Origin: an uncultured Acidimicrobiia bacterium
Lineage (GTDB): Bacteria > Actinomycetota > Acidimicrobiia > Spongiisociales > UBA4744
Reading direction: 5' to 3'
DNA: 64,000 bases
Assembly: GCA_964633745.1 (NCBI GenBank)
Contig: CAZWHZ010000002.1
Span: 5,318-69,317 of the forward strand
Positions 12,439 through 62,132 of this stretch are shown piece after piece. Positions within the stretch are counted from its first letter, which is position 1. Every line of letters begins with the position of its first letter. The notes beneath the pieces are model-generated. The model was given only the letters and a program-made list of their open reading frames with translations. It made no database searches and was not told the DNA's origin. The translations under genes and the position numbers were made by a program.

Positions 12439-12470
12439 TCGGTCATCGGTTCTCAGTCATCGGTAGGAAC
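12439..12470 (+). repeat. Type-1 heptad array directly after the cca stop
   Basis: TAG|TCGGTCA TCGGTTC TCAGTCA TCGGTAG GAAC. Confidence 0.8.
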
Positions 12471-12513
12471 AGCGCGGGGACCACGAGGCCGTAGGGCGCG
12501 CCTCGTCGACAGC

Positions 12514-12541
12514 CGATCGTCGGAAACCGCGAACCGCCAAC
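12514..12541 (-). repeat. Inverted partner array (CGGTT subtype)
   Basis: Plus strand CGATCGT CGGAAAC CGCGAAC CGCCAAC, which on the minus strand is GTTGGCG GTTCGCG GTTTCCG ACGATCG. Tail to tail with the array at 12439. Confidence 0.6.
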
Positions 12542-41371: not shown

Positions 41372-41388
41372 GCCCGCTTTTGCGGGCC
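41371..41388 (+). terminator. Hairpin immediately after the dnaB stop
   Basis: GGCCCGC-TTTT-GCGGGCC, 7-bp GC stem, overlapping the last base of the TAG. Confidence 0.6.
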
Positions 41389-41391
41389 GTC

Positions 41392-41416
41392 TTGGTCATG
41401 GGTTGTCGGTAAGACC
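41392..41416 (+). repeat. Degenerate type-1 array after the dnaB terminator hairpin
   Basis: TTGGTCA TGGGTTG TCGGTAA GACC. Confidence 0.5.
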
Positions 41417-41653
41417 GTTGTCCTGGTGTCCCGTGTTGTTCGAGGTCGCGTAGGCCGGTCACAGCCTGCTGGAGGCCATCGGTACCGACCGACACCGAAA
41501 CAGGCTCCTCGTTGCACGGGCCTGTTGGCCTCTTCGTGAGTGCAGCGTAGGGGGGCTCTCGTTGCGGTAGGAGGCTGTGTGCGGCAGCTGGTCGGCTGCC
41601 GGCTGAGAGAGGCTCGCCTGGCCCTGCGGTCTGGTGTGGTTCCAGGCTGCTTG

Positions 41654-41670
41654 CTGAAGACTGAAGACTG
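41654..41670 (-). repeat. Type-1 array, inverted orientation
   Basis: Plus strand CTGAAGA CTGAAGA CTG, which on the minus strand is CAG TCTTCAG TCTTCAG. Confidence 0.65.
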
Positions 41671-41692
41671 GCGGTTCGCTTGGCGAACCGCC
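41670..41692 (+). other. Perfect 10-bp stem-loop abutting a heptad array
   Basis: GGCGGTTCGC-TTG-GCGAACCGCC directly after CTGAAGACTGAAGACTG. Confidence 0.55.
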
Positions 41693-45354: not shown

Positions 45355-45368
45355 CTAGTACCTCGTAT
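45355..45368 (+). repeat. Type-2 heptads 3' of fadA
   Basis: CTAGTAC CTCGTAT. GTACCTCGTA (45358-67) is the exact reverse complement of 45412-45421. Confidence 0.6.
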
Positions 45369-45411
45369 GGGCCCGGCCGCCCCGCGGTCGAAGAGCGGGT
45401 CGCGAATGTGG

Positions 45412-45424
45412 TACGAGGTACGGC
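45412..45424 (-). repeat. Type-2 heptads directly 3' of the EamA transporter gene
   Basis: Minus strand after the stop reads GCC GTACCTC GTACCAC. Confidence 0.55.
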
Positions 45425-48553: not shown

Positions 48554-48606
48554 TTCGGCTCCCGGTTCGCCGTTCTCGGTTGCCGGTTCCGGGTTCTCGG
48601 TAAGAC
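48554..48606 (+). repeat. Type-1 (CGGTT subtype) array, seven units
   Basis: TTCGGCT CCCGGTT CGCCGTT CTCGGTT GCCGGTT CCGGGTT CTCGGTA AGAC. Confidence 0.8.
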
Positions 48607-48648
48607 ACTCGCCCTACGGTCTCGTGTTCTTCTGCGTCGCGTTCTCAC

Positions 48649-48682
48649 CGATGACTGAAGACTGAGGACTGAAGACTGTTCT
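48649..48682 (-). repeat. Type-1 heptad array abutting the dcd stop
   Basis: Minus strand after the TGA reads AGAACAG TCTTCAG TCCTCAG TCTTCAG TCATCGG TGAGAAC. Confidence 0.85.
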
Positions 48683-51999: not shown

Positions 52000-52070
52000 A
52001 GCGGGTGAGGGGAATCGAACCCCCGCTACAAGCTTGGGAAGCTCGTGTTCTACCACTGAACCACACCCGC
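52000..52070 (-). tRNA. tRNA-Gly (anticodon CCC)
   Basis: Hand-folded cloverleaf. Acceptor GCGGGTG/CACCCGC, D arm GTTC-AGTGGTA-GAAC, anticodon arm CGAGC-TTCCCAA-GCTTG, T arm GGGGG-TTCGATT-CCCCT. CCA is not encoded. TAGAAT lies about 10 nt upstream of the 5' end. Confidence 0.9.
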
Positions 52071-58695: not shown

Positions 58696-58710
58696 GAGGT
58701 TCTACAGCTT

Positions 58711-58729
58711 ACCCCACCCGGGGTGGGGT
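58711..58729. promoter_or_regulatory. Probable CsoR operator
   Basis: ACCCCAC-CCGGG-GTGGGGT, a G/C-tract inverted repeat 16 nt upstream of the csoR ATG. Resembles the known CsoR box style (TACCC-N-GGGTA). Confidence 0.65.
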
Positions 58730-58833
58730 GGGGAAAACGACCATGAGTGAGGCCCCGGAGGAGGGGACTTCCGGGGCCTCGAACCGGCGCCTGGGTGGAG
58801 GGGGGAACTGGGGCGCCGAGATGTGGTCTTGTC

Positions 58834-59028
58834 TCACGTGCCTTCGGGGACGACCCTGCCGCGCACACGAGGAAAACGAACTGGAGCGTGGGTGTAGCAG
58901 TACTCACGCCGGTTGTACATCGAGAGACGGGTGTCGCAACCCTTCTCGGCACACACTCTGTCTTCACCGTACTTGCGGGACGGCCGTAGACCGCCTTTGA
59001 GTCGTGCGCCTTTCAGTGTGTCAGCCAT
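58834..59028 (-). CDS. Small basic protein with a putative zinc-ribbon (64 aa)
   Basis: ORF with CAEKGC...YCYTH (C-x4-C ... C-x2-H). Lies upstream of and co-oriented with csoR. Family not recognised. Confidence 0.45.
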   Translation of the reverse strand: MADTLKGARLKGGLRPSRKYGEDRVCAEKGCDTRLSMYNRREYCYTHAPVRFPRVRGRVVPEGT

Positions 59029-59218
59029 GTTGCCCTCTGTCTCGTGGGAGGAGTGCCGGATACGCTACCCGACCCTCTTTGGGATTGCACCTATATCGAC
59101 GTTCTGAATGGTGTTTTTATTCCGCGATCACGATTCTGTCAAGCAAAGTGTGCGCGATGAAGGTGAACAGGGCGTGAACGCCCCCTAAAGAAATCGTGAG
59201 AATTGGCGGGCTCCGCCC

Positions 59219-59250
59219 GCAGTCTTCAGTCTTCAGTCCTCAGTAGGGAG
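59219..59250 (+). repeat. Type-1 heptad array with no upstream plus-strand gene
   Basis: GCAGTCT TCAGTCT TCAGTCC TCAGTAG GGAGC, preceded by the small hairpin GGCGG-GCT-CCGCC. Confidence 0.85.
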
Positions 59251-59341
59251 CACGACCTGGAGCAACGCGAGATTGAGGGGCGTTCCTCTTCGGATAGCTG
59301 ACAGCCGAGAACTCACGACCAGCTCACGAAGCGAGCCTCCC

Positions 59342-59376
59342 ACCGAAAACCGAGAACCGAAAACCGAGAACCCCCG
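59342..59376 (-). repeat. Inverted CGGTT-subtype array ending 20 nt upstream of the SDR start
   Basis: Plus strand ACCGAAA ACCGAGA ACCGAAA ACCGAGA ACCCCCG. This is a perfect 14-nt unit repeated twice. Confidence 0.85.
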
Positions 59377-59395
59377 AGCCGCTACCGTGCGGCCC

Positions 59396-60163
59396 ATGGA
59401 AACAGGGCTTCGAGGGCATGGTGTGCTGGTGACCGGTGGTGCCGGGGGCATCGGAACGGCGGTCGTGAGAGCGTTTGCGGATGAGGGAGCGAGGGTGGCG
59501 ATTCACTACCTGTCCTCCGAGATGCCGGCGAGGCAACTCGCCGATGAGGTGAGCGGAGTCGCGCTACGGGCCGATCTGACGGTCGAGGAAGAAGCCGACG
59601 GGCTGATCCCGGAGGCAGCGCGGGAGTTGGGCCGACTCGACGTGTGCGTCGCCAACGCGGGGGCATGGCCGTCAGAGGATCTGCCAATGTGGGATCTTCC
59701 GCTCGATCGATGGAACCGGACGCTCGGCGCGAACCTCACTGCGACGTTTCTCACGATGCGAGGGTTCCTCCGTCATGCGGCAACAACGGGGTCGGGGAGT
59801 CTCGTCCTGGTCGGATCAACGGCAGGGGTGTTCGGTGAGGCCGGACATGCCGACTACGCAGCGGCGAAGGGCGGGATCCTCACGGGGCTGTTGCTGAGTG
59901 CCAAGAACGAGGCGGCGAGGATCGGCGTCAGGGTCAACGCCGTCGCTCCAGGATGGACGGTGACGCCGATGACAACCGACGCCAGGAAGGATCCGTCGCT
60001 GGAACGGCGCGTCACCGCCACGATGGCGTTGAAGAAGCTCGGGAGTCCTGAGGATGTCGCACGACAGATCGTGACGCTCTCCTCGGATCGCCTGTCCGGT
60101 CACGTGACGGGCCAGGTGGTGGTGGTTGCCGGCGGCATGGAGGGGCGCCTCCTTCAGGAGTGA
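59396..60163 (+). CDS. Short-chain dehydrogenase/reductase (SDR)
   Basis: TGGAGGIG cofactor motif, NAG, and YAAAK catalytic Tyr/Lys. ATG 59396 lies inside the listed ORF 59273..60163. Confidence 0.85.
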   Translation: METGLRGHGVLVTGGAGGIGTAVVRAFADEGARVAIHYLSSEMPARQLADEVSGVALRADLTVEEEADGLIPEAARELGRLDVCVANAGAWPSEDLPMWDLPLDRWNRTLGANLTATFLTMRGFLRHAATTGSGSLVLVGSTAGVFGEAGHADYAAAKGGILTGLLLSAKNEAARIGVRVNAVAPGWTVTPMTTDARKDPSLERRVTATMALKKLGSPEDVARQIVTLSSDRLSGHVTGQVVVVAGGMEGRLLQE

Positions 60164-61629
60164 TAGACCTCCTGTCCGGCAACCCACGTGGACATCACGC
60201 GCGTACCGCGAAGCGACTCTGGTGATGCGATCACAGGGTCACGATCGACAACGGCGAAATCGGCAGGCGAGCCGGCCGAGAGGGGCGACGGCTCGCCGAG
60301 GGACTCGGCCGCGTTCGAGGTGAACAGGGCGAAGGCCTGCTCGGCCGAAAGCGACTCAGGTTGAACGTCCGCCCGGTCGCGCGCCGCTGCCATGCCTGCG
60401 AATGGGTCGGGGGATTCCACCGGGGCATCGGAGCCACCACACATCGGGATGCCGGCAGCGTGCATCGTCGCGAATCGATAGGTGTGTGCGGCCCGAGCGG
60501 GTCCGAGCCTCCACGGGAGCCATGGGCTATCGGAAGGCACGAAGGAGGGCTGCACACAGGCCGTGACGCCGAGGTCGGCCATTCGGCGGACCTGGTTGTC
60601 ATGAGTGAGCGATGCGTGCTCGACGCGAAGGAGGTGTGGGGGCGCCCCCTTCTCAATGAGTGCCTCGAAGCAGTCCAGCACTTCGTCGACTGCGAGATCT
60701 CCAATGGCGTGCACGGCGACCAGCCCGCCGGCGTCCAATGCCACTCGGGCTCGGGACATGACATCGGCACGGTTCAAGCGAAGCAGGCCCGCAGTAGTGG
60801 GATCGTCGCTGTATGGCTCTCGGAGCGCCGCCGTCCTTCCGCCAAGGCTGCCGTCTGCGAATGCCTTGACACCTCCGAATGTCAAGAGGGGGTAGTCGAG
60901 CGCTCGGATCGTGGGCCGATCGAGTGCCTCGACAATGGCGTGGACTCGGAGAGGAAGGATTTCCGCGAGATCGATGAGTGGCTCGATTTGTTCCGACCAG
61001 ACCGACGTGATCACGGCACCAATCGACGTGATCCCCAGCCGGACGAGGCCGTGAAGCGTTGCGAGGAGCTGCTGAGGTGTCACCGGGGTCGTCTCGAGTC
61101 GGGAAGCAACCAGCGAGACGGCAGTCTCTCGCAGAATGCCAGTGGGGACACCGTCGGGGTCTCGGTCCAGGGCGCCCCCCACAGGATCGGGAGTGGCCGG
61201 GCCCACTCCTGCCGTGTCGAGCGCGGCGGTGTTGGCGATGGCGATGTGCCCACAGACCCGGTACAGCAGGACAGGCCACTCGATGGCGTCGAGATCGTGC
61301 CGAGTCGGAAGTCGACCTTCGGATAGGGCGTGTTCGTCGAGGCCACCTCCGACGACGGATCTTTCGCTCTGAGCGATCATTCCCAGGAGTTCGCCGATGT
61401 TCGTGGCACGACTGAGATCCAACCCTGAAGTCAGGCCCATGGGGTGGAGGTGCGCGTCACGAAGTCCCGGGATGACAACCGCGCCGGGGAAGTGGACTTC
61501 CGGCGTCCCGTGTGATCGAAGGGTGCCGGCGTCGTCAACCGCAATCACATGTTCACCGTCGATGAGCAGTCCGGTGGCTGAGGATTCCGACGGTGTACGA
61601 ATCGAGTCGGCGACGATCAGTCGTCTCAA
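60154..61629 (-). CDS. Metal-dependent amidohydrolase (Amidohydro_3-like)
   Basis: PGLRDAHLHP metal motif near the N-terminus, with later AVHAIGD and GSDAPV motifs. Start guessed at TTG 61629 (TTGA overlap with the nitroreductase stop). Its 3' end overlaps the convergent SDR by 10 nt. Confidence 0.75.
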   Translation of the reverse strand: MRRLIVADSIRTPSESSATGLLIDGEHVIAVDDAGTLRSHGTPEVHFPGAVVIPGLRDAHLHPMGLTSGLDLSRATNIGELLGMIAQSERSVVGGGLDEHALSEGRLPTRHDLDAIEWPVLLYRVCGHIAIANTAALDTAGVGPATPDPVGGALDRDPDGVPTGILRETAVSLVASRLETTPVTPQQLLATLHGLVRLGITSIGAVITSVWSEQIEPLIDLAEILPLRVHAIVEALDRPTIRALDYPLLTFGGVKAFADGSLGGRTAALREPYSDDPTTAGLLRLNRADVMSRARVALDAGGLVAVHAIGDLAVDEVLDCFEALIEKGAPPHLLRVEHASLTHDNQVRRMADLGVTACVQPSFVPSDSPWLPWRLGPARAAHTYRFATMHAAGIPMCGGSDAPVESPDPFAGMAAARDRADVQPESLSAEQAFALFTSNAAESLGEPSPLSAGSPADFAVVDRDPVIASPESLRGTRVMSTWVAGQEVYHS

Positions 61630-62132
61630 CCGGGAAACTCCCAGATGAGCTCGTCGAGGGGCTTGCGCCCTCCGTACGGGCGCTGCGTGCGAGCTGCTTC
61701 CTCCGCTTCGACGTCTGGGTAGCCGAACGCGATCGCATAGCGACACGTGTGACCATCCGGGAGGCGAAGCGTTTGGCGTGCGCACTCGCTGTCGTGGAGC
61801 GTGACGGGGCACGAACCGATCCCGAGTGCCGATGCGGCGAGCATCATGTTCTGGGCAACGCGACCGATGTCGAATTCATAGCCGTCCGGAAGTCGCACGA
61901 GCGCAACCCCGAGTGTGGCTTTTCGCATCGGCAGGGTGAAGGACCCACACGTGGCGAGCGCCGCTCTCGATGCTGGATCACGGAGCGGGATGAACGCCCA
62001 GCGCTGGGTGTTCTTTGAGCTGCCTGTCCATCGCCCGGCCTCGAGGATACGAGTGACGTCCTCGTCGAGAAGGGGCTCTGGTGTGAAGTTTCGGGTGACG
62101 CGCAGGCCTTTGATGAGTTCGTAGGGTTCCAT
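61626..62132 (-). CDS. Nitroreductase family protein
   Basis: Typical N-terminus (RVTRNFTPEPLLDEDVTRILEAGRWTGSSKNTQRW) and AAQNMMLAA-like segment. Confidence 0.8.
   Translation of the reverse strand: MEPYELIKGLRVTRNFTPEPLLDEDVTRILEAGRWTGSSKNTQRWAFIPLRDPASRAALATCGSFTLPMRKATLGVALVRLPDGYEFDIGRVAQNMMLAASALGIGSCPVTLHDSECARQTLRLPDGHTCRYAIAFGYPDVEAEEAARTQRPYGGRKPLDELIWEFPG

Follow-up and report, generated by a model that had tools for sequence, protein, structure and literature searches.

A diverged copy of a heptad-armed intergenic repeat in the gap between two divergent genes of an uncultured Acidimicrobiia bacterium

We analyzed a 64,000-nt stretch of DNA (the window; positions 5318-69317 of contig C2) from an uncultured member of the Acidimicrobiia, and within it the element at 59206-59376, which lies between two divergently oriented genes, one for a 64-residue zinc-ribbon-like protein on the minus strand and one for a short-chain dehydrogenase/reductase (SDR) on the plus strand. 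The element, made up of one unit and part of a second, is a diverged and composite copy of a structured intergenic repeat whose folding strand is here the minus strand. We put at roughly 55% the probability that this focal copy is a passive or weakly functional resident of the gap, with no more than a spacer role upstream of the SDR promoter, rather than the end of a transcript. The window is part of a 1.84-Mb metagenome-assembled genome (G000; 157 contigs, 63% G+C) with a completeness of only 77%. It was compared with four congeners (G001, G002, G003 and G004), with three genomes of genus g3 (G006, G009 and G011), and with G005 of genus g2. Positions given without a contig are those of the window.

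The unit was delimited with a covariance model (A1/R1, hereafter R1) built from 23 complete units. R1 matches the minus strand at 59228-59314, arms and core included, with 36.0 bits (E = 5e-12; R1 E-values are rough), compared to merely 16.9 bits on the plus strand. The top copies of the family score 80–92 bits, so the focal copy is a diverged one. Its A/C-type arm at 59220-59249, which is the 3' arm of the unit on the minus strand, reads on the plus strand as the heptads CAGTCTT CAGTCTT CAGTCCT followed by the family's array terminus CAGTAGGGA; in G003 and G004 this array is one heptad shorter. An earlier, sequence-only reading of the window had given this left array as GCAGTCT TCAGTCT TCAGTCC TCAGTAG GGAGC at 59219-59250, which is correct, and Tandem Repeats Finder (TRF) reports it at 59220-59244 with a period of 7, 3.6 copies, and 94% matches. 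A diverged copy of the family core follows at 59251-59288 (iterated nhmmer, E = 1.3e-3), the minus strand reading GAGGAACGCCCCTCAATCTCGCGTTGCTCCAGGTCGTG, and then the 5' arm of the model-defined unit at 59289-59320 on the minus strand, which the R1 alignment resolves into the degenerate G/U-type heptads GGTCGT GAGTTCT CGGCTGT CAGCTAT CCGAA. An inner GC box, GGCTCGCTTCGTGAGCT (59321-59337, minus strand), can form a hairpin with one G.U pair and marks the junction of the partial extra unit. Beyond it lies an outer G/U-type array on the minus strand at 59338-59376, CGGTTTT CGGTTCT CGGTTTT CGGTGGGA with CGGGGGTTCT ahead of it. This contains the perfect doubled 14-mer (ACCGAAAACCGAGA)x2 that had been described as the right array (TRF, 59342-59372, period 14, 2.2 copies, 100% matches), and its end is indeed 19–20 nt from the SDR start codon. 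The 95 nt between the two arrays had been taken as a spacer; they are not anonymous, since they hold the core, the degenerate array, and the inner GC box. On the zinc-ribbon side the element is bounded by an outer GC box, GCGGGCTCCGCCCGC (59206-59220), a palindrome with a 6-bp stem and a 3-nt loop. Such a box is the usual flank beside arrays of the family, boxes like GGCGAGCTTCGCTCGCC standing ahead of most arrays in the genome. The composite layout of array, GGTAGGA, GC box, array, and core recurs at C66:3932, C57:8922, and C31:3380.

Folded as RNA, the minus strand of the element reaches -79.3 kcal/mol (z = -3.18; none of 200 shuffles folded as well), the corresponding values for the plus strand being -50.7 kcal/mol and z = 0.0. 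In the minimum-free-energy fold the outer G/U array pairs with the A/C array through G.U pairs. The proposal that the element mirrors a dcd-proximal unit on the opposite strand agrees with the R1 matches, at 48584-48663 on the plus strand (81.8 bits) and at 59228-59314 on the minus strand (36 bits). The focal copy has the core, the polarity, the GC boxes, and the inverted TCRGTYN arrays of the family, the arrays running at 59220-59249 on the plus strand and at 59289-59320 and 59338-59366 on the minus strand. The TAG that typically bounds a unit is present on the SDR side, as CTA at 59382-59384 (TAG on the minus strand), and absent on the zinc-ribbon side. A search of Rfam 15 at gathering and E-value thresholds found nothing in 58700-59700, and its sole match in the window was a tRNA at 52000-52070. 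A scan for consensus terminators gave one weak minus-strand site at 59377-59364, with 0.8 expected in shuffled sequence, and the sequence that follows the GC box at 59206-59220 is only moderately U-rich on either strand.

The repeat family to which the element belongs is found mainly in the genus of G000. A typical unit begins behind a stop codon, often TAG, with a GC box resembling GGCGAGC-TTC-GCTCGCC, and continues with some three to four G/U-rich heptads (TCGGTTN), GGTAGGA, a core of about 36 nt (CTCGCCCYRCGGTCTC...GGTCGCG), TCCTACY, some three to four inverted A/C-type heptads, and a second GC box; the heptad consensus is TCRGTYN. Genome-wide, period-7 tandem arrays number 34 in intergenic and 7 in coding sequence, and each of the other periods from 4 to 12 accounts for at most one intergenic array. 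Chains of at least three units matching C[AG]G[TC][CT] number 168 (130 of them intergenic), compared to about 32 in shuffled sequence, and both arms of the units cluster at 3–4 heptads. Iterated nhmmer recovered 68 copies of the core in G000, and R1 has 88 matches there. For the four congeners the R1 matches number at least 88, 93, 52, and 15; for other genera of the taxonomic family they range from 0 to at least 19, and the rest of the order has almost none among the matches listed. The core is variable, and the 77% mean column identity of the copies argues against a recent burst. Neither this family nor heptamer repeats in Acidimicrobiia were described in the literature that we searched. A control pattern, the heptad motif in reverse, is abundant in some related genomes without TCRGTYN arrays (G008, G016, G014, G012, and G027), and the heptad motif of the arrays seems to vary from one lineage of the order to another.

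The family as a whole is polar and is placed mostly at the 3' ends of genes. Across the 23 aligned units, 91% of arm and core cells pair, compared to 26–48% when the partner columns are slid, and at the variable R/Y positions there are 77 G.U cells and 13 cells of A.C type. The arms of a unit accordingly pair via G.U on one strand, and the same positions are C.A mismatches on the other. In 48 of 61 units the folding strand and the upstream gene have the same sense (p = 8e-6). Among 53 classified units, 22 lie in convergent, 25 in co-directional, and 6 in divergent gaps, the focal copy having been put in the divergent class by hand as the gene caller had over-extended the SDR start. Convergent gaps are enriched in units about 2-fold and divergent gaps depleted about 2-fold. 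Similarly, 79 of 124 intergenic arrays are sense-oriented 3' of a gene, 65 of these within 25 nt of the stop codon; 23 pairs of arrays are convergent, as against 2 divergent; and 60% of array-associated genes end in TAG, compared to 33.5% genome-wide (p = 1e-5). Position, orientation, and polarity together indicate that the family most plausibly acts as a polar RNA hairpin at 3' ends, either a terminator or a stabilizer.

Array position at orthologous gene 3' ends is conserved while the sequence turns over. The array at 26426-26450 persists at G003:C4 ~579480 and G001:C3 ~34070, with CAGCTGA/CAGCCAG in place of CAGTCTT, and that at 45355-45424 persists at G003:C4 ~599950, with ACAGCAA in place of GTACCTC. 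That 3'-end copies hold their position even with the heptad type replaced supports a 3'-end hairpin role of the family. We also noted a concerted change at 31289-31323, where G000 has (CAGTCCT)x4 and G003 (C4 ~585920) has CAGTCTT GAGTCTT GAGTCTT CAGTCCT; one substitution shared by several units is expected from slippage or gene conversion.

The focal copy departs from this pattern. The sequence-only reading was correct that it is not in a 3'-end context but between the divergent zinc-ribbon and SDR genes; it is neither directly 3' of a stop codon nor sense on its folding strand to an upstream gene. It is not the lone orphan that it was thought to be, given that six of the 53 classified units (~11%) occupy divergent gaps and that the copy is common to three of the four congeners and a second genus. 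In G003 (46 bits) and G004 (61 bits) the gap contains a shorter, canonical unit with the zinc-ribbon sense, as in G000, and in G002 (33 bits) and G011 (35 bits) it contains a unit in the opposite, SDR sense (all R1 scores). G009 and G006 have a heptad-armed unit of ambiguous orientation at the same spot. In G001 the gap has a different repeat, without an R1 match. This is a second dispersed repeat, a CCTCCCCCAACG...GGGGGAGG hairpin (L004 1900-2020 of G001), that also occurs beside heptad units in G000 (C130 ~3050 and C98 ~5150). G005 has the gap without any unit, and no R1 match among those listed genome-wide; there the -10 region of the SDR gene is joined almost directly to the block upstream of the zinc-ribbon gene.

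Sequence constraint on the focal copy is weaker than on its surroundings. The unit is 54% identical to that of G003, compared to 83% for the zinc-ribbon upstream region and 80–89% for the flanking coding sequences. By contrast, the 3'-end unit after cca (12439-12541) is 88% identical to its G003 counterpart, against 80% for the cca coding sequence. The long non-coding region between dnaB and fadN (41372-41679) is 87% identical to G003; it and the cca 3' unit are at least as conserved as neighboring coding sequence, and the focal unit is not. Since units occupy the gap in three of four congeners and in a second genus, we judge from the alignments that the focal copy is old and positionally persistent, that its orientation is not kept, and that its interior drifts. 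The suggestion that the family can move or duplicate is therefore borne out in part: there is turnover, the gap in relatives having a unit of another length or orientation, another repeat, or nothing, but a recent insertion of the focal copy is not supported.

On the SDR side the element abuts a probable promoter. The hexamer TACCGT (59383-59388), part of CTACCGT at 59382-59388 on the plus strand, is a -10-like TAnnnT sequence located 7 nt before the SDR ATG at 59396. All eight genomes read, which represent three genera and include the unit-free G005, have it (as TAGCGT in G003) 7–8 nt ahead of the SDR start, which has no Shine-Dalgarno sequence. A -10-like box just before a start codon that lacks a Shine-Dalgarno sequence is the layout of actinobacterial leaderless genes, and on this basis the SDR mRNA is probably leaderless. 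With such a layout the arrays would be upstream promoter DNA and not a 5' untranslated region (UTR). The right array had been assigned to the promoter or the 5' UTR of the SDR gene; the first assignment fits, as the array abuts the conserved -10-like box, and the second would not. The CTA of CTACCGT is the usual boundary TAG of the units in reverse complement. Of 20 genes that have an inverted array no more than 70 nt upstream, 7 have CTAnnnT followed by 5–9 nt and a start codon, compared to 85 of 1600 genome-wide (5.3%; p = 4e-5). Unit ends abut CTAnnnT and a start codon at C5:14924, C22:16859, C21:7340, C17:15873, C86:6063, and, in the window, 59382-59396. A TAG occurs within 28 nt upstream of 45% of the arrays beside divergent gene starts, compared to a background of 16%. 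TAnnnT lies 5–9 nt upstream of 203 of 1600 called starts, suggesting that leaderless genes are common in this organism.

We favor a passive resident because the focal copy lacks the 3'-end setting, is oriented differently in different relatives, and is under weak constraint in its interior; from these features we infer a lack of function at this site. The unit fills the only free slot between two divergent promoter regions, bordered by the conserved block upstream of the zinc-ribbon gene and by the CTACCGT -10 box of the SDR gene, and nothing would read into it as a 3' UTR. On this view it is an old resident that relatives kept or re-acquired in either orientation, with arrays that change by gain and loss of heptads and an interior that drifts. 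That neither its orientation nor its interior is kept argues that the feature selected at 3' ends is absent at this gap. The copy therefore offers a natural control within the family, in which the anatomy is kept and the orientation and interior sequence are not.

Several observations weigh against a neutral resident or against the view of the family from which it is set apart. A run of 33 nt, GGCGGGCTCCGCCCGCAGTCTTCAGTCTTCAGT, is identical in G000 and G003, which exceeds the expectation from a background identity of ~85%. All examined relatives that have both the family and the SDR/zinc-ribbon gap, from two genera, have a repeat there, and such persistent occupancy could reflect selection for an orientation-independent role at the DNA level rather than neutrality. 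In G005, whose gap has no unit, 16 nt of the flank conserved in genera g1 and g3 are absent as well, such that insertion is not separable from deletion. The gene calls came from our own codon-usage caller and are crude. Regarding RNA structure, the 23 aligned units display no covariation, with a double change at only one pair and with pairing overall equal to that of shuffles; the arms within a unit are not matched in length (rho = 0.11); and the excess of G.U pairs, considered as a sign of selection for pairing, was rejected since it equals the product of the arm compositions. As compensatory changes were not seen, it is the polarity and position of the units that speak for RNA structure in the family. 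The data show a polar repeat, and selection on RNA structure is not thereby proven.

The first alternative to a passive resident is the orientation-independent role just mentioned, in which a protein binding to the heptads or GC boxes, or a cruciform extruded from the long inverted repeat by the negative supercoiling that arises between divergent promoters, would tune or insulate both promoters, and in which the CTA end may be part of the SDR -10 box. We regard this as possible but unlikely. It would account for the occupation of the gap in either orientation in both genera that bear the family, for unit ends that abut the CTAnnnT boxes of probably leaderless genes above the genome-wide rate, and for the frequent TAG at arrays beside divergent starts (45%, compared to 16%). 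The clustering of arms at 3–4 heptads also fits, a similar preference for four units having been reported by Rehm et al. 2015 (PMC4692102). However, we know of no candidate binding protein, a function in duplex DNA leaves the one-strand G.U polarity unexplained, and G005 has the TACCGT box and the gene pair without the unit, indicating that the unit is not needed for the promoter.

Also unlikely is a functional minus-strand hairpin that terminates or insulates against antisense transcription of the SDR gene, such as read-through from the amidohydrolase gene, and would thereby shield the promoter of the zinc-ribbon gene along with the csoR-copZ-copA operon. The minus strand alone folds better than shuffles, and the long hairpin is followed on that strand by a GC box and then by the U-rich AAUUCUCACGAUUUCUUUA. 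The amidohydrolase gene (552 residues, 60154-61812, minus strand) converges on the SDR gene with a 10-nt overlap at 60154-60163 that leaves no space for a terminator between them, an overlap that recurs in G004 (L003:417-426), and the orientation of the unit is kept in G003 and G004. The unit is nevertheless reversed in G002 and G011 and missing from G001, and its interior diverges faster than its flanks. Rho, moreover, would be expected to stop an untranslated antisense RNA of ~780 nt before it reached the unit, and the terminator scan found just the one weak site.

It is rather doubtful that unit ends serve as portable punctuation, with the focal unit forming part of the SDR promoter and the family spreading by TAG-targeted insertion through an unrecognized enzyme, no Y1 transposase having been found. 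Under such a scheme, TAG, GC box, and U-rich heptads would provide an inbound gene with its stop codon and 3' hairpin, and the same end read outward, as CTAnnnT, would provide a leaderless outbound gene with its -10 box. If the TAG/CTA boundary rule is true, it would point either to insertion by a targeted mechanism or to repeats serving as donors of stop codons and promoter elements.

Least likely is a small RNA or small-protein gene on the plus strand that ends near 59205-59250 and makes the element an ordinary 3'-end copy: the GC box followed by CAGUCUUCAGUCUU does resemble the family's order of stop codon, GC box, and array, a 26-residue open reading frame (ORF) at 59108-59188 stops 17 nt before the GC box, and GC box and array are identical in G000 and G003, but that ORF diverges in G003, where by hand translation it is out of frame, 22 residues long, and different in its C-terminal half, it lies within the conserved region upstream of the zinc-ribbon gene on the minus strand, neither a conserved TAnnnT on the plus strand nor a promoter-like site nor an Rfam match was found, and the plus strand folds no better than shuffles. 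The sequence-only reading was right that no plus-strand gene precedes the left array, the ORFs there encoding merely 26–64 residues. Those of 26 and 57 residues were rejected as genes, being unconserved and overlapping the zinc-ribbon upstream region. The alternative it offered, an unannotated transcript ending at the element, is unsupported: nothing pointed to a gene on the plus strand there, or to a plus-strand promoter that is conserved.

The 25-nt identity that had been thought to link the element to a locus elsewhere in the window is real, with AGTCTTCAGTCTTCAGTCCTCAGTA at 59221-59245 identical to 26426-26450. It extends by 0 nt on either side, and the 25-mer is found at just these two sites in the genome. 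As a specific link it fails: 41 pairs of arrays in the genome have an exact 25-mer in common, as expected of arrays made of few unit variants. The orthologous 26426 site in G003 and G001 has CAGCTGA-type heptads behind a TGA stop codon. On these grounds (41 such pairs, zero extension, another heptad type at the orthologous site) recent copying was rejected, and the identity is a coincidence of low-complexity sequence.

Heptamer tandem repeats were reported by Mrazek et al. 2007, as cited in PMC4679880 and PMC4692102, to be the most over-represented long simple repeats between bacterial genes, and intergenic heptamer repeats have had no accepted function since that report. The closest parallels are the GGGAATC repeats of Xanthomonas, which form convergent pairs near stop codons, and the GGGGAYT repeats of Nostoc (Rehm et al. 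2015, PMC4692102). Like the present family, these consist of tandem 7-nt units that are strongly over-represented between genes, often as two convergent arrays able to form a stem-loop; related genomes differ in the number of units but keep the type of site, arrays of about four units are preferred, and there is no known function. The present units (CAGTCTT/CGGTTYT, or TCRGTYN) differ in lacking G3 tracts and are not of the GGGNATC type, and without G-runs they cannot form a G-quadruplex. They differ further in that a conserved core of ~36 nt lies between the arms and GC boxes accompany them, in that the two arms differ systematically (G/U versus A/C) so that a single strand pairs, and in their host phylum, Actinomycetota. 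The TAACTGA direct repeats of marine Beggiatoaceae, Cyanobacteria, and Bacteroidetes, for which a role in translation was proposed (MacGregor 2015, PMC4679880), are likewise intergenic heptamer arrays, of 2–6 units. Their reverse complement TCAGTTA fits TCRGTYN, and NAACTGA units occur in 3' arms of the present family; they are, in contrast to it, without a conserved core. This lineage could be useful in that its arrays combine a conserved core, GC boxes, and strand polarity with fixed positions relative to stop codons and to the -10 boxes of probably leaderless genes.

Two groups of palindromic repeats were also compared. The repetitive extragenic palindromic (REP) sequences of Gammaproteobacteria and their mosaic forms (BIME), associated with RAYT transposases, are short imperfect palindromes that lie mostly at gene 3' ends, as in the present family. 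They are likewise polar, through G.T mismatches in the stem, number tens to hundreds of copies that are often clustered, and form hairpins that stabilize mRNA. The arms described here are, unlike these, tandem heptads of variable number with no fixed palindrome. A Y1 transposase (RAYT/IS200-type, PF01797) was found in none of 20 genomes of the taxonomic family (G000 and 19 relatives, 13 of the 20 at least 90% complete) by a search that recovers the transposase family in 6 control genomes. Mobilization by RAYT/IS200 was rejected on this result, so the family is not a REP/RAYT system, although it is REP-like in position and polarity. MITEs (miniature inverted-repeat transposable elements) such as the Correia elements of Neisseria are dispersed intergenic palindromes of ~100–150 nt, a likeness to the present repeats; their ends can create promoters or terminators for neighboring genes, and their occupancy differs among related genomes. 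Neither a target-site duplication nor a clean empty site was seen for the focal copy in related genomes, and no partner transposase was identified. The focal unit is palindromic from end to end, and no recognizable duplication is present at the G005 gap with its missing 16 nt of flank.

As to the neighboring genes, the SDR gene (59396-60163, plus strand) matches Pfam adh_short_C2 with E = 1.6e-47. The zinc-ribbon-like gene (58834-59028, minus strand; C-x4-C ... C-x2-H) is real and conserved, being present without internal stops in all 41 related genomes; its identity is 97–98% in three of the four congeners and 89% in G002, and a Pfam search with the protein gave no match. Its conserved upstream region (59029-59205, minus strand) holds a promoter-like site, TTGACA-17-TAAAAA, at 59110-59142. 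A block within this region, GGAATAAAAACACCATTCAGAACGTCGATATAGGTGCAAT (59084-59123, minus strand), has been conserved in three genera (the congeners, G005, G006, and G009) and may be a regulator site or a leader-RNA motif; near it is the direct repeat GTTCAC-N5-GTTCAC (59163-59179). A stretch overlying the C/G-tract operator region, at 58702-58824 on the minus strand between csoR and the zinc-ribbon gene, weakly matches the alphaproteobacterial small RNA ar14 of Rfam (33 bits, compared to a gathering score of 58.8; E = 3e-4), which is probably a chance match.

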